Below, piece by piece: positions 8,942-44,109 of a stretch of DNA of 64,000 nt. The notes below the pieces were generated by a model. That model had not been told where the DNA came from, did no database searches, and saw nothing but the letters and a program-made list of their open reading frames with translations. Position numbers and translations under genes: made by a program. Position 1 is the first letter of the stretch. Each line of letters begins with the position of its first letter. The DNA comes from Promethearchaeota archaeon (GTDB lineage: Archaea; Asgardarchaeota; Lokiarchaeia; Sigyniarchaeales; SOKP01), in the NCBI GenBank assembly GCA_048938855.1, contig JBHLLT010000009.1, positions 43,955 to 107,954 on the forward strand, read 5' to 3'.

Positions 8942-9496
8942 ATGGAGATTCAAGACTCTAAAGGTAAAATTATTAAAGAAACGTTCCCCTCAGAACTCAT
9001 ATCTATTATTGGAGATATCCTAGCAGGGATCCTACTCTCTCTTTTAATTTTACCATTTCATAGTTTTCCTATTTTAATCTTAATGGTTCCAGCGCTTCTC
9101 TCTTTGAGAGGAAATCTGAGTGGTCCATTCATAGCCAGAACTTCTCGCGATTTAATTGTAGGAGACTTTAGTAAAAGAACTTGGATTGAAAATGTACTAG
9201 CTACTTATTCATTATCAATAATAACAGCAATCTTTATAGGGCTCTTTTCTATAATTTTAAATTTTATATTCTTTAGACTGTTCATACTTCCAATTGTATA
9301 TTTTATTCTAATTCCAATGATATCCATTGTTTTAGCACTATTAATTTCTATTCCTTGCTCAACTGGACTAAATTATTTAGCTTTCAAGAGAGGCTTGAAC
9401 CCAAATAATATTGTAAATCCTGTTATGACAGCTATTGATGATTTTTCTACAACATTTTGTTTCCTTTTAACAATAATTATGTTGGGGGTGCCGTAA
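8942..9496 (+). CDS. MgtE/SLC41-type divalent cation transporter, membrane half 1
   Basis: PALLSLRGNL and GLNPNNIVNPVMTAIDD MgtE motifs; purine-rich GAGGAGGA upstream. Confidence 0.85.
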   Translation: MEIQDSKGKIIKETFPSELISIIGDILAGILLSLLILPFHSFPILILMVPALLSLRGNLSGPFIARTSRDLIVGDFSKRTWIENVLATYSLSIITAIFIGLFSIILNFIFFRLFILPIVYFILIPMISIVLALLISIPCSTGLNYLAFKRGLNPNNIVNPVMTAIDDFSTTFCFLLTIIMLGVP

Positions 9497-9538
9497 ATTA
9501 AATATTATTTTAAAATTTTCAAAGAGTCAATAATTATT

Positions 9539-10048
9539 GTGATTATTTCTTCAATTGCAGGATTAATCTCAGGTACAGTCCTTTCATTTAGTAGAGATCT
9601 ATTATATACCATTCCATTGATGCTTTTAATAATTCCTGCATTAAATTCATTAATAGGTGATATGGCAACAGTTTTGGTTTCAAGATTAACTACACATCTA
9701 TATATCGGAACCATACCTCCAAAAATTCAGAAATCGAAAAGACTACTAGAAGATTTTTATGGTTTAATTATAACTCTTTTGTTGAGTCTGGCAGCTCTGC
9801 TAGTAATAGGTTATGTAGTTGGTATTATCTCTGGTATTAGCATTATCCATCCATTATTAATGATTTTTATTATTACATTTACTATTTTATTAATCTTTTT
9901 TATTATGTTTGTTACAATGTTTATAGGTGCTATATTCTTATTTAAACGAGGAAAAGATCCTAATAATTTTTTAATTCCATTTGTTACCTCCTTATCTGAT
10001 TTTCTTACGCCATTTTTCTTAATTCTATTTATAATAATATTTATATAA
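9539..10048 (+). CDS. MgtE/SLC41-type transporter, membrane half 2 (frame open from 9497)
   Basis: PALNSLIGDMA and GKDPNNFLIPFVTSLSD motifs; same frame as half 1, separated by one TAA. Confidence 0.85.
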   Translation: MIISSIAGLISGTVLSFSRDLLYTIPLMLLIIPALNSLIGDMATVLVSRLTTHLYIGTIPPKIQKSKRLLEDFYGLIITLLLSLAALLVIGYVVGIISGISIIHPLLMIFIITFTILLIFFIMFVTMFIGAIFLFKRGKDPNNFLIPFVTSLSDFLTPFFLILFIIIFI

Positions 10049-22741: not shown

Positions 22742-23668
22742 ATGAATGAGCAGTTCCGTACTTTTCTGAAAAATAACAAAATCGATGAAGATACACTCCC
22801 TCGTAAAAATTGTTGTAACAATCCATTTATTGAATCTAGGGATGGGAATAAGGTTTGTTTGAACTGTGGGGTAATCTTCGAAAGAACTTATGTTGGAAAT
22901 GAGAGAAGGGCATATACAATTGAAGAGATACAGAATCGGCGTAGAACAGAGCCACGTTGGCGGGATTTTGGCCCTCGAACAATGCTTCCAACAACTAAAA
23001 CCGATAGTAAAGGTAAAAGTATTGGTGCAAAAGAACAAGCGCTTTTCTCTCGTCTTTCAAAAATTCAGAATTCACTAATATCAAGCATCGAAAGAAACTT
23101 TTGGGAAGCAAAACCAAAATTGAAGATGCTTACGTCAAAACTTAATGTGCCAGAATATATTGCAGAAACAGCATGGAAAATATATAGTTTAGTAGCTAAA
23201 AAGAAATTAACTATGGGAAGATCAATAAATGGTTTTATTTCGGGATCACTATATGCTGCTATTCGTGTTCATGATTTTCCACGGCTTTTAGATGAAATTT
23301 GTGAAGCATCACTAACACCTAGAAGAACTGTTCATAGAAGTCTAGCAATGATTATTCGTGAAGTATTACCTGAACTCAAGTTAAGATACCAGCCAATTAC
23401 GGCTGAAAGTTTAGTATTTCGTTTTGGTAATGAATTAGATTTACCAATTTCGATACAAAAAAATGCTATAAATATGTTAAAAGATGCTTCTAAAAATGGT
23501 TTGAAGCGAACTGGGAAAGATCCTAAAGGATTAGCCGCTGCATGTATATATATCGCTGCAAAAAATGGTGCAATTCGTAAAACTCAATCCAAAGTTGCTG
23601 ATGTAGCAAAGATTACCGAGGTCACGTTGAGATCTCGTGCTAAACAAATAAAAAGCAAATTAACTTAA
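22742..23668 (+). CDS. tfb: Transcription initiation factor IIB (TFB)
   Basis: Zn ribbon CCNN...VCLNCG, cyclin repeats with MGRSI and GKDPKGLAAACIYI, TQSKVADVAKITEVTLR. Confidence 0.92.
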   Translation: MNEQFRTFLKNNKIDEDTLPRKNCCNNPFIESRDGNKVCLNCGVIFERTYVGNERRAYTIEEIQNRRRTEPRWRDFGPRTMLPTTKTDSKGKSIGAKEQALFSRLSKIQNSLISSIERNFWEAKPKLKMLTSKLNVPEYIAETAWKIYSLVAKKKLTMGRSINGFISGSLYAAIRVHDFPRLLDEICEASLTPRRTVHRSLAMIIREVLPELKLRYQPITAESLVFRFGNELDLPISIQKNAINMLKDASKNGLKRTGKDPKGLAAACIYIAAKNGAIRKTQSKVADVAKITEVTLRSRAKQIKSKLT

Positions 23669-23674
23669 AACTTT

Positions 23675-24250
23675 TTAATCTTTTACATTTTTTTCTTGTT
23701 TTTCAGCTTCTTCTTGTAAGAGAGACCATTTTATACCAACAGCAGTGATACATAATCCAAGTAGTAAATAAAACGTATTCACTGAAAGAAAGAAAATCCA
23801 AAATAACGCAGCACTGTAGGAAGTAATTGTAGGACTGTAAAGAGCAGATTGAAACCGAATGGTGGTAAAAGTGGATGTGATTTTAGTCTTTCCTAACAAC
23901 ACTAAAAAATCCATTTTAACTAAACCAGCCAATAAAGCAACCATACCGATGATTATTATAAGTTTAGCTAATGCACTGCTTTCAATTTTCTTTTTTGAGG
24001 AGATTTTAAAAATGAAAATACCCAAAATTAAAAAACATACCATAGAAATAATCACAAATAACCATAATAATGTTCCCGAAAATGGAAATATAGTAGAGGA
24101 GTATACAAATTCAGATAACATTAAAATGTTCCCATCAAGAATAAAGGGAGTAAAATTCAATATTACTATATATGCTAATTCGATTATTGAAATAATGATA
24201 AATGTAGAACCTACAATTTCAAGAAATTTAAGAACTTTTTCGTATTTCAT
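23675..24250 (-). CDS. 4-TM membrane protein
   Basis: ORF track start 24361; ATG at 24250 (MKYEKVLK) is more plausible; four hydrophobic helices. Confidence 0.6.
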   Translation of the reverse strand: MKYEKVLKFLEIVGSTFIIISIIELAYIVILNFTPFILDGNILMLSEFVYSSTIFPFSGTLLWLFVIISMVCFLILGIFIFKISSKKKIESSALAKLIIIIGMVALLAGLVKMDFLVLLGKTKITSTFTTIRFQSALYSPTITSYSAALFWIFFLSVNTFYLLLGLCITAVGIKWSLLQEEAEKQEKNVKD

Positions 24251-24401
24251 ATTTAACACGTTGAAATTTTGTAAAAAAGCAAGAAAATTTTTTATGCAAT
24301 TATACTTATTATTGTTTTTGAAATTAATAAAAATTTTTAATATTAATGTTTTTTTTATCAATTTTATTTAAAAATAATTAATCTCCCATAATGATTTTAT
24401 A

Positions 24402-25367
24402 TTGAAAAAGCAAAAAAAGCTAGACACAGAAATAGCAAGCTGTTCTCATAAAAATATCAAACAAGATAGTGGATTTATCGTTTGCCAAGATTGTGGATTG
24501 ATCATGGAAGAAAATGTAGCATTTGAAAATACAGTATCAAGCAGTGAATACTTTGACGATTCACAGAGAGACTATGAGAGAAGAATTAAGATAGGTGATT
24601 CAAAAGCACTCCAAGATCCTATCATAAAAGAGAAATATGATCGTATTAAAACTCTAGAAAAATGGTTTAGAGATTATGAGTCTGATTTTACTGAACAGAA
24701 AAAGACAATTGAATTACTTAAAAGTCATGGAATCGGATTAAACATTGATAACGTTAGATATAAAGAGATTAAGGATAGATACCTGAAGTACAATAAATAT
24801 CATCGACATAATTATCAAAACATGGTGATAATTTTTCTTGCAATTGTATGGATGCAAATAAAAGATACTACAAACATTAGAATCGAGGATTTCATTAATA
24901 CTTCAAGAAGTCTAGGACACAAAATAAATAAAAAAATGTTAAACAATGCTATGTTAAAAATTAAGCGAACTGAAAAAATCTTCAAAGAAAAAAAAGGAAC
25001 TGTAGAATTAGAAAGAGAAATTAAAGGAAAAATTAAAATTGTCTTTCAAAAAGATTTAAACAACATTCCATATGAAAAAGTGCAAGAATTTTTTAATAAT
25101 CAGGTCGAATTTGAAAAAATAAAAATCGAAATGCAATTATTGGCAGATAAAATATTAAATAAAATAACATATCAGCAGATTCAGAGTCTTAATTATAAAG
25201 CCTTTACAGCGGGTTTAATCTATTATATATCGCAAACTTTGTCCAATAGAAAGATTTTTACGCAAAGTTTAGTTGAAAGTACTAGTAAATTTTCAAGTAC
25301 TACAATTAGAAAAAAATATCATTTCCTAAAAGATTTATTGGGAGATCCCCAGAATCTTAACCTCTGA
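24402..25367 (+). CDS. Divergent TFB-like protein
   Basis: N-terminal CSH...VCQDCG Zn ribbon; C-terminal AFTAGLIYYI...TQSLVESTSKFSSTTIRKKY resembles the TFB final cyclin-repeat HTH. Confidence 0.65.
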   Translation: MKKQKKLDTEIASCSHKNIKQDSGFIVCQDCGLIMEENVAFENTVSSSEYFDDSQRDYERRIKIGDSKALQDPIIKEKYDRIKTLEKWFRDYESDFTEQKKTIELLKSHGIGLNIDNVRYKEIKDRYLKYNKYHRHNYQNMVIIFLAIVWMQIKDTTNIRIEDFINTSRSLGHKINKKMLNNAMLKIKRTEKIFKEKKGTVELEREIKGKIKIVFQKDLNNIPYEKVQEFFNNQVEFEKIKIEMQLLADKILNKITYQQIQSLNYKAFTAGLIYYISQTLSNRKIFTQSLVESTSKFSSTTIRKKYHFLKDLLGDPQNLNL

Positions 25368-25422: not shown

Positions 25423-28299
25423 ATGTCATTATCTCAGAAACGAAATGAAATCTATTATTACAATCAACCAATAGAGGAAATTGTAAAAGATTTAAATACA
25501 AATATAGAGGTTGGATTAAATTCCTCTGAATTAGATGAACGCTATCAAAAATCGGGCTTTAATGAATTACCAAAAATTAAAAAGTCTATTTGGAGAATAT
25601 ATCTTGCCCCAATTTTTAATTTTTTAATAATGATCCTTCTGATTGCAAGTATTATAATTGTAATATTAGGATCTCCAGGAGAAACTCTTATTACGTTCAC
25701 AGTCGTAATAATTAACTCAGTTACAGCAATAGTTCAACAATATCGTGCTCAGAAAGCCCTAGAGTCTTTAAGAGAAATATCCGCTTTAAAAACAACTGTT
25801 CTACGAGATGGAAAACGGATTGAAATAAAGACGAAAGATATTGTTCCTGGAGATATTGTTATTTTAAATCAAGGAGATAAAATACCTGCAGACGGTAGAA
25901 TATGTGAATTCACAAATTTTACTGTTGATGAAGCTCCTCTCACTGGAGAAAGTGAACCTGTTGAAAAAAATAGTTTTATTTTAGATAGTATAAATATTCC
26001 TCTTCAGAATCAATCGAATATGGCATTTATGGGAACATATGTACGAACGGGAAGAGCAAAAGAATTAGTTACTAGAACAGGTATTAATACAGAAATTGGA
26101 AAAATTTCCCAAACTCTAAACGAGATGGGAAGTATTGAAGATATTCCATTAACTAGAAAATTAAATCATTTAGGACATATCCTTGGAATCCTTGTAATTA
26201 TAAATCTTTTCATTTTGTTAGGATCGAAACTTGTAATACTAGCCATTCAGGGAAATCTTATTCAAAATTTTGTTATTGAGGCAATTACGGATTCAGTAAT
26301 AAGATCAATGAACATTGTTCCTATAAATCTACCTTTACTATCAACTTTAGTTCTTATCACTGGTGTTTTAACAATGGCTCAAAGTGGTGTAATTATCAAG
26401 AACTTGTCCGCAATTGAATCTCTTGGAAGAGTTTCGGTAATTTGTTCAGATAAAACAGGTACAATTACCAAAAATGAAATGACCGTAGAAAATTTTTGGA
26501 TAAATGAACAAGAATATGAGGTAACCGGATCTGGATATAATGCAGATGGTCAAATCTTTAAAGATCATACTCCAATAAATTTAAACTCTAATAGTACATT
26601 CATAAAATTTCTTAATTCTATTGTTATAAATAATACTGCTACTTTAGAATTTGAAGATGTTAAAGTTAAGTTAAAGGAGGTTAAAGAGAAGGCAATAAGA
26701 AGAGCATTAGGCTCACCTACGGAAGCAGCATTACTAGTCTTAACTGAAAAAGCTAAGATATATCCTTATGACATTGAAAAGCAATTTACTAAGATTGATG
26801 AATTTTCATTTAGTTCAGAAGAAAAACTAATGACAACGCTAGCTAAAAATTTAAGAAATAATGATGAAATATTTGCATTTTCGAAAGGTGCTCCAGAAAA
26901 AATACTTTCACTATCCTCCCAAATTGAAATTGATGGAGAATTGAAAGATTTTGATTATGGTTATAAAAACATAATTCTTGATCTTATCAATAAACGTGCA
27001 GAACAAGGATTTAGAACTTTAGGAATTGCTTATAGAATTTTAGGTAAAATTAATGGATTAAAAAGAGAAGAAATTGAGAAAAACTTAATTTTCCTAGGTT
27101 TTGTATCTATTATGGATCCTCCACGTCCAGATGTTAAAAAAGCTGTTGAAGAGTGCCAAGCAGGAGGTATAAAAGTAATTATGATAACTGGAGATCATCC
27201 AGCAACAGCAAAAACCATTGCCTCACAAATGGGCATTTTTAGAGAAGGTGATTTTGTAGCTACTGGCAACCAAATCGAAAATCTACCTATGAAAGATTTT
27301 AATAAAACAACAGTATTTGCTCGAGTTGAACCTAATGATAAAGAAATAATAGTTAAAAATTATCAGAACCAGAATTATATTTGTGCTATGACTGGAGATG
27401 GTATCAATGATGCTCCTGCTCTTAAATTAGCTAACGCGGGGATTGCTATGGGAATTACAGGAACCGATTTAGCTAAAGAAACTTCTGATATGGTAATTAC
27501 AGATGACAATTTCTCTTCTATTAAACAGGGGGTCAAAACAGGAAGAGGAATCTTTGCCAAAATAAGAACTATTATTTTCTTCTTTATATGTATTAACATT
27601 GTAGAAGGGATAATATTTTTTACTTTCGAACTAATAAAGCCTTTCATAGGATTCGCACTTTTTGCATCAAACTGGCAGCATATCTATATATTTGGAATTG
27701 TTCATTCCCTTCCCTCATTAGCTTTAGTAATTGATACTCATCCAAAAGATATAATGAATGAACCACCTAGAGATGAAGAACAATTATTAAACAAGAATAT
27801 GTGGATCATGCTATTAGTCCAGGCTTTTCTAATTGGTTTAGGTTTAATTCTCGCCTTACAATTAACATTAAACGGATTAATTCCTTTAAATGAATGGAAT
27901 TTAAATCCAATTTTAAGTTATATTCCATCATCCATTCCTTTAGATCTTGTAGCTCAAAAAGCAAGAACAATGTTTATTACTACAATATTCATTGTTGAGA
28001 CTAATTTCATATGGACATTTAGAAGACCTAATAAATCTATGTACAAAAGTTTCAAAGAAGAACTTAGCTATTCATTATTAGTAGTATGTTTATTTACTTT
28101 GGCATTACATGTTTTATATATTTTGTTCTCCTATACCGTTAATCATTATGTAAATGATGTATTTGGTTGGCATCTAAATATTAATTTCATGTTTCTTAGT
28201 GGAACAGATTGGCTAATTTGTATTTTACTAGCATTACCGGGATTTATTGGAGTTGAAATTTTTAAATATTTTGCCCGAGAGAGAAATATTCATTTTTAG
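25423..28299 (+). CDS. P-type ATPase (P2A-like scaffold, atypical ion-binding residues)
   Basis: LTGES, CSDKTGT, KGAPE, MDPPR, ITGD, TGDGINDAPAL; M4 NIVPINLP. Confidence 0.95.
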   Translation: MSLSQKRNEIYYYNQPIEEIVKDLNTNIEVGLNSSELDERYQKSGFNELPKIKKSIWRIYLAPIFNFLIMILLIASIIIVILGSPGETLITFTVVIINSVTAIVQQYRAQKALESLREISALKTTVLRDGKRIEIKTKDIVPGDIVILNQGDKIPADGRICEFTNFTVDEAPLTGESEPVEKNSFILDSINIPLQNQSNMAFMGTYVRTGRAKELVTRTGINTEIGKISQTLNEMGSIEDIPLTRKLNHLGHILGILVIINLFILLGSKLVILAIQGNLIQNFVIEAITDSVIRSMNIVPINLPLLSTLVLITGVLTMAQSGVIIKNLSAIESLGRVSVICSDKTGTITKNEMTVENFWINEQEYEVTGSGYNADGQIFKDHTPINLNSNSTFIKFLNSIVINNTATLEFEDVKVKLKEVKEKAIRRALGSPTEAALLVLTEKAKIYPYDIEKQFTKIDEFSFSSEEKLMTTLAKNLRNNDEIFAFSKGAPEKILSLSSQIEIDGELKDFDYGYKNIILDLINKRAEQGFRTLGIAYRILGKINGLKREEIEKNLIFLGFVSIMDPPRPDVKKAVEECQAGGIKVIMITGDHPATAKTIASQMGIFREGDFVATGNQIENLPMKDFNKTTVFARVEPNDKEIIVKNYQNQNYICAMTGDGINDAPALKLANAGIAMGITGTDLAKETSDMVITDDNFSSIKQGVKTGRGIFAKIRTIIFFFICINIVEGIIFFTFELIKPFIGFALFASNWQHIYIFGIVHSLPSLALVIDTHPKDIMNEPPRDEEQLLNKNMWIMLLVQAFLIGLGLILALQLTLNGLIPLNEWNLNPILSYIPSSIPLDLVAQKARTMFITTIFIVETNFIWTFRRPNKSMYKSFKEELSYSLLVVCLFTLALHVLYILFSYTVNHYVNDVFGWHLNINFMFLSGTDWLICILLALPGFIGVEIFKYFARERNIHF

Positions 28300-28416
28300 A
28301 TTTCTCTTAAATCTTTAATTTTTTAAATCATGATTATTATAGGTTATTTATTATATTGATTAGATATTTTTAGTCAATTTTTTTTTAATCACACAAAAAA
28401 TTGTGGATGAGCCACT

Positions 28417-31308
28417 ATGGAATCAACACAGAAAAATTATTATAATCTCGAATTAGGACAAATCTATAAAGAACTTGAGACTGACCCTGAAGAGGGATTG
28501 AGTGAAAAGGAAGTTAAAATACGGCAAGAAAAATATGGTTATAATGAGATCCCTAAAGTATCTAAAGGTTTTGTTAAAATATATTTGGCTCCGCTGTTTA
28601 ACTGGCTGATCGTGATATATTTGATTGGTGCTGTTATTTTGTTTTTAGCAGCTGTCTTCGGAGGACAGGGATCTCTAATGTTTATTGGTTTAACATTAGG
28701 GATAGTTTTTCTAAATTGTCTAGTCGCCATTGTTCAACAATATAGAGCAACAAAGAAGCTTAAAGCTTTACGCGAATTAACAGCACCTACATCAACTATT
28801 ATTAGAGATAGTCAAAAACAAGAGATCCCCACTAGAGAAATCGTAAGTGGAGATTTATTAGTTTTAAATCAAGGGGATAAAATTCCCGCTGACTCTCGTA
28901 TAATTGAATCATATAATATGGTAGTGAATGAAGCTTCGTTAACAGGTGAGTCTGAACCAGTAAGAAAATTAGAAAAGGGTGATGCTTTACAAAAGAAAGA
29001 TATTTCTATTGGAGAACGAAGTAATATGGTGTTTTATGGAACCTTTATAAGTCAAGGGAATGGTAAAGCAATTGCTGTAAAAATTGGTGGTGATACCGAA
29101 ATTGGAAAAATTTCTCATGGTTTAGAAGAGGCGGGTACAAGTGAGATTCCAATACGTCAGAAAATGAATCATTTTGGAAAATGGTTAGGATTGACTATTT
29201 TAGTTTTTTGGTTTATAACATTAATAATTTTATGGGTAGCAAGAGGATCTGCTGATATTGTAGGAAGTATGAATTCTGCCCTAGATCTAATGCCTCTTAA
29301 CATTCCGTTATTATCAACTATTATTTTGATTACAGGGGTTTTAGCTATGGCACGGTATGGTGTTATTATACGAAATCTTGCTTCTGTTGATAGTTTAGGA
29401 CGAGTAAGTGTGGTTTGTTCCGATAAAACCGGTACATTAACCAAAAACCAGATGTCAATACAACATGTCTGGACAAATGGTTCTATTTTTAGAGTAACTG
29501 GAAGCGGTTATACTCCCGAAGGGGATATAATTCTTATGGATAACCCCAAAAACCCCACATATATTAAACATATCGATGAATATCAATACTTGAAGTTATT
29601 ATTAACTGCGGGTTTTCTGAACAATAATTCAGCATTAATAAAAAATGAATTAGAGGTTGGGGGTAAAATAATTCCAAAATGGGATGTTATTGGTTCTCCT
29701 ACAGAAGGAGCTCTAATGGTTTTATTTCAAAAAGGTATGGGTGATTACCTTCTCGATGATTTTGAAGCAATTACAGAATACCCTTTTGATTCAACAGTTA
29801 AGAGAATGACCAAATTATACAAACGAGGACTTGAATATTATTCGTTTACTAAAGGTGCTAGTGAAATTCTGATTCCACTTTGTACAAAAATAATTTATAA
29901 TGATGCTGAAATCGAATTCAGTCAGGAAATTAAAAATAAGGTAATGGAAATTGTAAATATTTATGCTAATCAGGGCTATCGAATATTAAGCCTTTGTTAT
30001 AAAGTAATGGATATAGTACCACCTGAAGGAGATGAGGGAAGAAAATTAAGTGAATCTGATATGGTATACATTGGTTTTGTAACCATTCTTGACCCACCAA
30101 GAGAAGGAGTTAAAGATTCAGTGAAGGAATGCCATGAAGCTGGAGTAGACGTTGTAATGATCACAGGAGATTCTCCTGCTACTGCCCGTGCAATTGCTTC
30201 TCAAATTGATATTATAACTGATGAGAATGAAACAGCTAAAGAGGGTAGAATGGTAAAAGATATTGAAAGTTTTAAAGAATTTAATTCAATTAAAGTATTT
30301 GCGAGAGTCTCGCCAGAACATAAAGAGGATATTGTGGAAAAATATCAAGAAGAAAGAAAAGTGGTTGCCATGACGGGAGATGGAGTAAACGATGCTTTAG
30401 CGCTAAATATGGCTGATGTTGGAATTGCTATGGGTATAACGGGTACTGATGTAGCTAAAGAAGCCTCTGATATGGTTATTTCTGACGATTCTTTTAACTC
30501 AATTGTTACAGGTATTCATCAAGGAAGAGGAATATTTGCTAGAATCCGTGCTATGGTTTTCTTTTATATTTGTATAAATATTTTTGAAGGTTTAGTGCAA
30601 TTCATTTTGTTTGTAATATTGGAATTACCTTATTTCCTAACTACAGAATTTTACCTTCAATGGATATTTCTCACTATAACAGTTCATACATTTCCGGGAT
30701 TAATCCTTACTTTTGACACTACCTCTAAAGATGTAATGAAAGAAAAACCACGAGATTCTGAAGAAATACTCTCAAAAAATACATTCATTCTAATGTTTGT
30801 ATTTGGTGTTTTGATGTCTGTGAGCATGGTATTGGTTTATTTTATAATCTTTAGTGGGTTATATCCAGTTTTTCCTGAAAACTTAGTTCCTGGATACCTC
30901 TATTATGATGGTAGTTTACTACCAACAGAAATTAATGGAGTACCAGTAACTCTACAACAGATTCAAGTTATTGGCAAAACTTTAACAATGTTGATGTGTA
31001 CACTCTTTATCTGTGAATCTACTCTTGTATTTCAGATAAGACGGCCAAATAAATCATTAATTAAGAGTCTAATTGAAGATAGAAATAAATTTATGTTTAT
31101 CCTTATCGGTCTAGTGTTTTTCATCTTTATTGCAGTTTTATATATACCTGGTGTTCAAATTTTCTTAGCACAAGAAATAGGCATAAATTTTATGTTTATG
31201 TATTTAACTGGATTTGATTGGTTAGTGTGTTTCTTAATTTCTTTAATCTGTATTGCGGGTTTTGAGATTGTCAAATTTATTGCTCGTAAGATGGATATCA
31301 AATTTTAA
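28417..31308 (+). CDS. P-type ATPase (tandem paralogue, atypical ion-binding residues)
   Basis: LTGES, CSDKTGT, KGASE, LDPPR, ITGD, TGDGVNDALAL; M4 DLMPLNIP. Confidence 0.95.
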   Translation: MESTQKNYYNLELGQIYKELETDPEEGLSEKEVKIRQEKYGYNEIPKVSKGFVKIYLAPLFNWLIVIYLIGAVILFLAAVFGGQGSLMFIGLTLGIVFLNCLVAIVQQYRATKKLKALRELTAPTSTIIRDSQKQEIPTREIVSGDLLVLNQGDKIPADSRIIESYNMVVNEASLTGESEPVRKLEKGDALQKKDISIGERSNMVFYGTFISQGNGKAIAVKIGGDTEIGKISHGLEEAGTSEIPIRQKMNHFGKWLGLTILVFWFITLIILWVARGSADIVGSMNSALDLMPLNIPLLSTIILITGVLAMARYGVIIRNLASVDSLGRVSVVCSDKTGTLTKNQMSIQHVWTNGSIFRVTGSGYTPEGDIILMDNPKNPTYIKHIDEYQYLKLLLTAGFLNNNSALIKNELEVGGKIIPKWDVIGSPTEGALMVLFQKGMGDYLLDDFEAITEYPFDSTVKRMTKLYKRGLEYYSFTKGASEILIPLCTKIIYNDAEIEFSQEIKNKVMEIVNIYANQGYRILSLCYKVMDIVPPEGDEGRKLSESDMVYIGFVTILDPPREGVKDSVKECHEAGVDVVMITGDSPATARAIASQIDIITDENETAKEGRMVKDIESFKEFNSIKVFARVSPEHKEDIVEKYQEERKVVAMTGDGVNDALALNMADVGIAMGITGTDVAKEASDMVISDDSFNSIVTGIHQGRGIFARIRAMVFFYICINIFEGLVQFILFVILELPYFLTTEFYLQWIFLTITVHTFPGLILTFDTTSKDVMKEKPRDSEEILSKNTFILMFVFGVLMSVSMVLVYFIIFSGLYPVFPENLVPGYLYYDGSLLPTEINGVPVTLQQIQVIGKTLTMLMCTLFICESTLVFQIRRPNKSLIKSLIEDRNKFMFILIGLVFFIFIAVLYIPGVQIFLAQEIGINFMFMYLTGFDWLVCFLISLICIAGFEIVKFIARKMDIKF

Positions 31309-43895: not shown

Positions 43896-44109
43896 AATTA
43901 TCCTAGTCCTTTCATATTATTTAGCTTTAAATTATAAAATGATCTTATGATAGATTTATAATTATCTTTTTCATATAATCCTCATGTATTAATTTATTAC
44001 TAAATTGTCGAGGATAAAGAACTTCTATTTCTAAATTTTTTATTATAAAATCAATTTTTCCTTTTTTTCTTTGTCGGATCAATGACTAATAGAAAAATTT
44101 AGTTACTAT

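Follow-up and report, generated by a model that had tools for sequence, protein, structure and literature searches.

Tandem P-type ATPases with rewritten ion-binding sites from an apparently undescribed P2-type clade of Asgard archaea

The two genes and their predicted products

A 64,000-nucleotide stretch of the genome of a Promethearchaeota archaeon (Lokiarchaeia; assembly GCA_048938855.1, contig JBHLLT010000009.1, forward-strand positions 43,955 to 107,954), hereinafter the window (GC content about 30%), encodes two adjacent P-type ATPases in which the catalytic motifs are intact and several of the membrane residues that bind the cations in the Ca2+ pump SERCA are replaced. The two open reading frames (ORFs) are co-oriented, on the forward strand, with a gap of 117 nt between them. 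The upstream one, here denoted paralogue A (P0001; 25423..28299), encodes a protein of 958 amino acids and is described on the basis of the ORF, its translation, Pfam matches and an AF2 model; the downstream one, paralogue B (P0002; 28417..31308), encodes 963 amino acids and is described on the basis of the ORF, Pfam matches and phylogeny. The two proteins are 41% identical in a full-length comparison, and both contain five Pfam domains above cut-off, namely, Cation_ATPase_N, E1-E2_ATPase, Cation_ATPase, Hydrolase and Cation_ATPase_C. The motifs TGES, DKTGT, DPPR, TGD and GDGxND were all found in A and in B, and the P-type superfamily model TIGR01494 is matched with 280 bits against a cut-off of 62. 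The combination of Cation_ATPase_N with Cation_ATPase_C, the ten-helix architecture and TGES, by which the type II (P2) pumps are recognized, is present in both proteins, and A and B are predicted to be catalytically competent P2-type ATPases.

In SERCA, Ca2+ site II consists of Glu309, Asn796 and Asp800 together with carbonyls of transmembrane helix M4, and site I of Asn768, Glu771, Thr799, Asp800 and Glu908. In A, motif searches on the forward strand locate the TGES of the A-domain at 25942..25953 (the P2-type form, not the DGET of the P4 ATPases) and DKTGT, with the predicted phosphorylated Asp343, at 26449..26463, and the elements of the ion sites on the same strand were placed by alignment. 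M4 reads N-I-V-P300-I301-N302-L-P (NIVPINLP, 26311..26334), with I301 at the position of SERCA Glu309 and N302 at that of Gly310; M5, N725-I-V-E728 (27595..27606), keeps the equivalents of Asn768 and Glu771; M6, QHIYIFGIVHSLP (27676..27714), has F757 for Asn796, V760 for Thr799 and H761 for Asp800; and M8, I-V-E859-T-N (27991..28005), keeps the equivalent of Glu908. In B, again on the forward strand, M4 reads D-L-M-P-L-N-I-P (DLMPLNIP, 29284..29307) and M6 QWIFLTITVHTFP (30658..30696), with His at the Asp800 position, both identified by alignment and motif search; motif search locates M5, N-I-F-E (30577..30588), and M8, I-C-E-S-T (31009..31023), in which the Glu is kept. The M6 equivalents of Asn796, Thr799 and Asp800 in A and B are Phe/Thr, Val and His, and neither the M4 PEGLP Glu nor the M6 Asn...Thr-Asp ligands that characterize the P2A Ca2+-ATPases are found in either protein. 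A preliminary description of the locus, made from the nucleotide sequence, had given the positions of both M4 motifs exactly and the catalytic motifs as intact, and had noted the His for Asp replacement and the loss of Asn and Thr in M6 along with the retention of the M5 Asn and Glu and the M8 Glu; the alignment agrees on all these points.

Conservation of the rewritten ion sites

A HMMER alignment of A to the Listeria Ca2+-ATPase LMCA1 pairs I301 with the M4 Glu, F757 with the M6 Asn and H761 with the M6 Asp, the M6 stretch IFGIVH of A falling on INLVND of LMCA1. The same columns were followed through an alignment that combined 30 diverse family members and 60 canonical relatives with 60 orthologues each of A and B. 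The columns of the M4 Pro, N302, N725, E728, H761 and E859 are filled by the same residue in 60 of 60 A orthologues and in 60 of 60 B orthologues, and the Glu309 column contains Ile or Leu in all 120. This column holds E in 60/60 canonical relatives and I, L, V, F or W, never E, across the 30 family clusters. Similarly, the Gly310 column is G in 55 of the 60 canonical relatives versus N in 27 of the 30 family members, the Asn796 column is N in 56/60 versus F, Y, S or T, and the Asp800 column is D in 53/60 versus H in 29 of the 30 clusters; the Thr799 position varies across the family. The columns of Asn768, Glu771 and Glu908 are occupied in the family by N (26/30), E (30/30) and E (28/30), and in the canonical relatives by N, E and Q/E, respectively. 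Among the 30 diverse members, P300 and E728 are invariant, and N302, H761, E859 and Q752 are at least 90% conserved. Given that the key columns are uniform in 60 of 60 orthologues, the rewritten M4 and M6 are not the product of chance or of sequencing error.

One family member, P0277, carries replacements of four of the five site residues (N302S, N725S, H761F and E859Q) and keeps the catalytic motifs, and the joint change of these four residues fits the notion that N302, N725, H761 and E859 form one site. P0277 itself may represent a naturally 'site-dead' or a re-specialised form, of possible use as a control.

A distinct clade of P2-type pumps

In a cluster scan that covered 1.84 billion representatives at 50% identity, about 30 clusters were found to have an M4 of the form P-[ILVFW]-N-[ILF]-[PVI], with an abrupt change to PEGLP pumps at approximately 530 bits. 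A maximum-likelihood tree of 76 proteins (LG+G4, short search), built without eukaryotic P4 or P5 sequences and with a canonical sample biased towards A-like proteins, unites the P-x-N proteins, as we refer to them, in one clade with a support of 99 in the Shimodaira-Hasegawa-like approximate likelihood ratio test (SH-aLRT). The P-x-N clade and the PEGLP pumps are joined at SH-aLRT 96, and the P3A-like pumps of the same genome and the P1B pumps fall outside this grouping. A and B are found in separate subclades of the P-x-N clade, that of B being the widespread form, so the duplication that gave rise to the two paralogues is old. The clade seems to lie beside or within the P2A radiation, and the phrase 'sister to P2A' is to be read in this sense.

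The profile searches place A and B near the P2A pumps and outside each of the described classes. The top-scoring hidden Markov models (HMMs) are the PMR1-type TIGR01522 (466 bits for A and 456 for B, cut-off 798) and the SERCA-type TIGR01116 (453 and 412 bits, cut-off 703), both below cut-off; on the P2A equivalog models, the canonical relatives score 690-820 bits. Every NCBIfam equivalog cut-off is missed by A and B with a margin of over 250 bits, and the P3A model TIGR01647 (362 and 339 bits, cut-off 615.5) scores below the P2A models. The top PDB sequence matches are LMCA1, SPCA1 and SERCA (E-values from 1e-124 to 1e-102). The AF2 model of A, with a mean predicted local distance difference test score (pLDDT) of 82.9, retrieves P2 pumps only among the Foldseek top 50, the fold matches including SERCA, SPCA, LMCA1 and Na,K-ATPase, and an ESM Atlas feature search returned P2-type clusters only.

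The closest relatives of A and B are labelled Promethearchaeota or Hermodarchaeota, both Asgard, and all labelled members of the family are Asgard, save for one cluster labelled Korarchaeota. In the literature on P-type ATPases or flippases in Asgard archaea or Lokiarchaeota, we found no description of the P-x-N clade, and the motifs themselves, when looked for in the literature, coincided with unrelated words only. Judging from the tree and the motifs, the P-x-N proteins appear to comprise a previously undescribed P2-type clade that is, so far, essentially Asgard-only. Pumps of the PEGL, P3A-like and CPC kinds are each encoded twice in the same genome, and the A/B pair thus probably adds a function rather than replacing a Ca2+ pump. 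The proposal of the preliminary description that these are not ordinary Ca2+ pumps is borne out by the missed equivalog cut-offs, the disappearance of the site II ligands and the two canonical PEGL pumps in the genome.

Comparison with P4 flippases

The likeness of M4 to that of the P4 lipid flippases had led to the suggestion that A and B transport lipids or other organic substrates and bear on the origin of P4. The P4 ATPases are characterized by DGET, by PISL with an invariant Ser, by a lipid-binding Asn in M6 and, in P4A, by the Cdc50 subunit (PMC11225554). Both A and B carry TGES, a caveat already raised when the suggestion was made and one with which the motif search agrees, and the position of the PISL Ser is Asn in 27 of the 30 clusters. 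The M4 likeness itself divides into two parts: the Ile or Leu in place of Glu holds for both paralogues, and the upstream Asn, three residues before the M4 Pro, holds for paralogue A only, with Asp in 60/60 B orthologues and S, N, T, A or K in the remaining family. Nor is a hydrophobic residue in the place of Glu309 unique to P4, since the P3A proton pumps share this feature. In line with this, the P3A pump Pma1 ranks above SERCA when the 53-residue M4 segment is searched against all PDB sequences. This search yielded 34 matches at E<=10, to MgtA (5e-5, with the similarity mainly downstream of the motif), SPCA1, Pma1 (0.2), SERCA (0.65-1.3), Na,K/H,K-ATPases and CopA; there is no P4 chain among the 34.

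On the P4 model TIGR01652, A scores 105 and B 92 bits against a cut-off of 431; four other family members reach 89-147 bits and four canonical P2A pumps 66-102 bits, and the P5 model scores are equal in P-x-N members and canonical P2A pumps. No TIGR01652 match exceeds the cut-off in any of 151 Asgard genomes, the best reaching 84 bits. A homologue of CDC50 (PF03381) was not found in the genome by a search that was also without a match in any control genome; the P4B flippases function without a Cdc50 subunit. A and B show no meaningful affinity to P4 beyond that of ordinary P2 pumps. Thus, the lipid-transport and P4-origin suggestion is not upheld, given TGES, a P4 score within the P2A range, an M4 segment with no flippase among its PDB matches at E<=10, a fold with none among its Foldseek top 50, and a branching position beside prokaryotic P2A in a tree that contains no P4 or P5 sequences. 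That the P-x-N clade is a surviving archaeal relative of the lineage that gave rise to the P4 flippases, already moving an amphipathic or lipid substrate along M4, strikes us as extremely improbable, and the evidence presented here weighs against it. The nearly invariant Asn/Glu/His/Glu constellation that is retained, and the buried Glu pair with a His and two Asn, point to an ion site and not to a groove for lipids.

A putative single-site cation pump

Altogether, we lean towards the reading that A and B, as members of a hitherto undescribed P2-type clade of Asgard archaea, pump cations through a single site, with a transition-metal-type divalent cation as the favoured cargo. For both proteins, we infer a single-site geometry, a direction of transport and a substrate, as follows. 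Site II would be plugged by hydrophobic side chains, with Glu309 and Asn796 replaced and Thr799 lost, and site I would be retained but rebuilt from the equivalents of Asn768, Glu771 and Glu908, the His that replaces Asp800 and a new Asn that takes the place of Gly310 where M4 is unwound. In the E1 state, by homology with SERCA, a single cation from the cytoplasm would bind at this Asn/Asn/Glu/His/Glu site and would be occluded upon phosphorylation of Asp343 in A or Asp336 in B; in E2P, it would be released to the outside, with protons probably taken up in return by the two Glu and the His. The mixture of imidazole, carboxylate and carboxamide ligands would best fit a divalent cation of the Mn2+/Fe2+/Zn2+/Co2+/Ni2+ type, although we regard the transition-metal-type substrate, taken by itself, as no more than tentative; conceivably, the His is instead a built-in counter-ion. 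For the essential M6 His in the HEGxT motif of the PIB-4 pumps, the same two roles, metal ligand and built-in counter-ion, have been proposed (PMC8880997). From the chemistry of the site, the substrate is predicted not to be Ca2+ handled in the canonical manner. With an equal first shell and a different second shell, A and B probably differ in ion or affinity and would not constitute an obligate pair.

Several considerations weigh against such a metal pump. That the five residues cluster is judged from homology to site I of SERCA and not from measured distances; His/Cys-rich metal-binding tails are present in none of the 30 members; and there are no metal-related genes or regulators in the gene neighbourhoods of five lineages. 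Furthermore, the genome already has four cation diffusion facilitator (CDF) exporters along with CorA and MgtE, leaving no obvious gap in metal efflux, and the hydrophobic Glu309 position, being a hallmark of P3A, would make H+ a serious alternative. No clue to the substrate was gained from gene context, metal-binding tails or a 'missing transporter' argument.

As proton pumps, A and B would combine a hydrophobic M4 with a single protonatable cluster (His761, Glu728 and Glu859) and would export H+ in the manner of P3A, energising the membrane or controlling pH, a capacity that fermentative Asgard archaea could use in the form of an ATP-driven exporter. The M4 signature of the family, P-[ILVFW]-N-[ILF]-P, and the closer match of the M4 segment to Pma1 than to SERCA agree with this possibility, as does the M6 His, which occupies what we take to be the position of the proton-carrying Asp of P3A (AHA2 Asp684). 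However, the P3A score of 362 bits is far from the cut-off of 615.5 and lower than those of the P2A models, the clade groups with PEGLP pumps and not with the P3A-like pumps of the same genome, which already number two, and a five-residue polar site with two Asn exceeds the needs of a proton; we consider proton transport unlikely. It is also improbable, in our view, that A and B are pumps for a hard cation (Ca2+, Mg2+, Na+ or K+) that carry one ion per cycle through site I alone. Such pumps would mirror LMCA1, PMCA and SPCA, which have site II only and have lost site I. Three of the five site I ligands of SERCA are kept, the added Asn302 is a typical ligand of hard cations, the family adjoins P2A in the tree, the closest match of the M4 segment is the Mg2+ ATPase MgtA, and all current annotations, including that in PMC7997004, read Ca2+. 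Against this, Asp800, the bridge between both Ca2+ sites, is His in 29 of 30 clusters, and imidazole coordinates Ca2+, Mg2+, Na+ or K+ poorly; moreover, the similarity to MgtA lies mostly downstream of the motif, and canonical PEGL pumps coexist in the genome.

Transport of a lipid or a large organic substrate, whether convergent with or ancestral to the P4 flippases, appears very improbable. It would draw on the Ile or Leu at the Glu309 position, as in the hydrophobic gate of P4, on the N-x-x-P-I-x-L of paralogue A, which resembles the P4 M4, on the Asgard host and on the loss of the canonical site II ligands. The TGES, the Asn in place of the invariant Ser, the restriction of the upstream Asn to A, a P4 score no higher than that of ordinary P2A pumps, the lack of P4 chains among the M4-segment matches and the Foldseek top 50, and the 0 of 151 Asgard genomes above the P4 cut-off all speak against it, as do the two Glu, the His and the two Asn buried and conserved in the membrane core.

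Distribution and gene neighbourhood

To assess the distribution, 71 Asgard genomes were sampled on the basis of GTDB; full-length family-type matches are present in about 10 of 21 Asgard families. A-type proteins (at least 57% identity) are confined to the family to which the window belongs and are always encoded directly upstream of B; in genomes of the same genus, the A-type orthologues are 66-68% identical. One further family has a tandem, and the B-like copies found elsewhere, one or two in number, are dispersed. On shared contigs, some of them only 7-8 kb long, we found 28 A/B orthologue pairs. The A-B tandem is a lineage-specific arrangement and not a pan-Asgard module. Evidence for a heterodimer of A and B was not found, and we reject the claim of an obligate one, given that in most Asgard families the gene is either single or present in dispersed copies.

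Two other views of the distribution were discarded. Conservation at 66-95% across Asgard phyla, as the NCBI labels Thor, Odin, Hod, Hermod and Loki would have it, is rejected since the A-type is limited to one family of the GTDB-based sample. The NCBI labels of the close A orthologues (66-74% identity) span Thor-, Odin-, Hod-, Hermod- and Lokiarchaeota, against one family in the GTDB-based sample, so that submitter labels are an unsafe guide here. An extension to Korarchaeota is rejected as well: the relatives of the single cluster so labelled are all Asgard, and a gene for an Arf/Ras-type GTPase adjoins the pump. In the genome in question (L092, GCA_012974725.1), this small GTPase (Arf/Ras/Roc-type) is encoded on the same contig as the pump, and the metagenome-assembled genome or contig is probably of Asgard and not of korarchaeal origin. 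A profile scan of genome contigs on the universal motifs CSDKTGT and GDGxND was of no use for the distribution, the matches listed being bacterial P2A pumps of 30-37% identity.

In the lineage of the window, A and B are preceded, in conserved order, by genes for TFIIB, a small membrane protein (reverse strand) and a TFIIB-like protein. In the window itself, these are a TFIIB gene (22742..23668, forward strand), which marks the DNA as archaeal, a gene for a small multi-helix membrane protein (23675..24361, reverse strand) and one for a 321-amino-acid protein with a weak match to the TFIIB zinc ribbon (24402..25367, forward strand). Two further Asgard genomes (L001 and L002) have this trio in front of the pair as well.

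Other transporters in the window and the genome

Elsewhere in the window (about 9086..10027), two short neighbouring ORFs, of 188 and 183 amino acids, each match the MgtE membrane domain above the Pfam cut-off and could represent a split or half-size Mg2+ channel pair. Two pumps of about 820 amino acids, encoded outside the window on contigs C62 and C83 of the genome, have an M4 of the form I-P-A/V-A-L-P, fall outside P2 on a long branch of their own and probably are proton pumps of the P3A-like kind. A further group of proteins (P0275, P0294, P0296, P0329 and P0339) is of double length, 1550-1700 amino acids, with two DKTGT motifs each; M4 is degenerate in the N-terminal half (CPAAV or SPALA, for example) and a normal PEGLP in the C-terminal half. 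These proteins resemble fused tandem P-type ATPases, possibly of the CtpH/CtpI kind.

Implications and comparison with known systems

Hundreds of Asgard proteins carry the label 'Ca2+-transporting ATPase'. The sole paper that mentions the proteins described here treats them as orthologues of the putative Ca2+-ATPase TC 3.A.3.2.21 and takes them to support Ca2+ signalling in Asgard archaea (PMC7997004). In view of the chemistry of the site, this inference seems unsafe. A 2023 review expects further families of prokaryotic P-type ATPases (PMC10654040), and the P-x-N clade would be a clean candidate for such a family or subfamily. Its putative design is the inverse of a familiar one, with site I kept, site II filled and the bridging Asp replaced by His, and it poses a testable question, namely, what a P2 scaffold carries when Asp800 is His. 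At present, the clade has no bearing on the origin of the eukaryotic flippases.

Among the known systems, the P-x-N proteins share the domain order, the catalytic motifs and the ten-helix fold with the prokaryotic P2A pumps (LMCA1, PDB 6zhf/9euq), SPCA1/PMR1 and SERCA, and the M5 Asn and Glu and the M8 Glu with site I of SERCA in particular. They depart from P2A in having P-[ILVFW]-N-[ILF]-P in place of PEGLP in M4 and in the rewritten equivalents of Asn796, Thr799 and Asp800 in M6; of the two sites, LMCA1, SPCA and PMCA have retained II and lost I, and the P-x-N clade apparently does the reverse. With the P3A pumps Pma1 and AHA2 they have in common a hydrophobic residue at the Glu309 position of the P-x-x-x-P kink of M4 and a key ionisable residue at the Asp800 position of M6, but this residue is Asp in P3A and His in P-x-N, and the M5 Arg of P3A corresponds to Glu. 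The resemblance to the P4 flippases ATP8A1, Drs2 and Neo1 consists in P-I-x-L in M4 with Ile at the Glu309 position and, in paralogue A only, the upstream Asn; the groove is largely uncharged in P4, in contrast to the charged membrane core of the P-x-N clade.

A conserved M6 His next to a Glu-containing site is also found in the PIB-4 pumps sCoaT and CtpD, where it is essential (PMC8880997). These have the P1B topology, with SPC in M4 and without Cation_ATPase_N and Cation_ATPase_C; the likeness is chemical and not phylogenetic. A further precedent is P6, exemplified by Mycobacterium CtpE, a P2-like prokaryotic clade marked by replacement of the TM6 Asp that was proposed as a new family on the strength of this change and of its distinct clade, and for which Ca2+ import has been shown (PMC10654040). 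The bacterial P6 pumps keep the Glu of PEGL in TM4 and have Ile in TM6, unlike the P-x-N pumps, which have no M4 Glu and carry His in the position of the M6 Asp.

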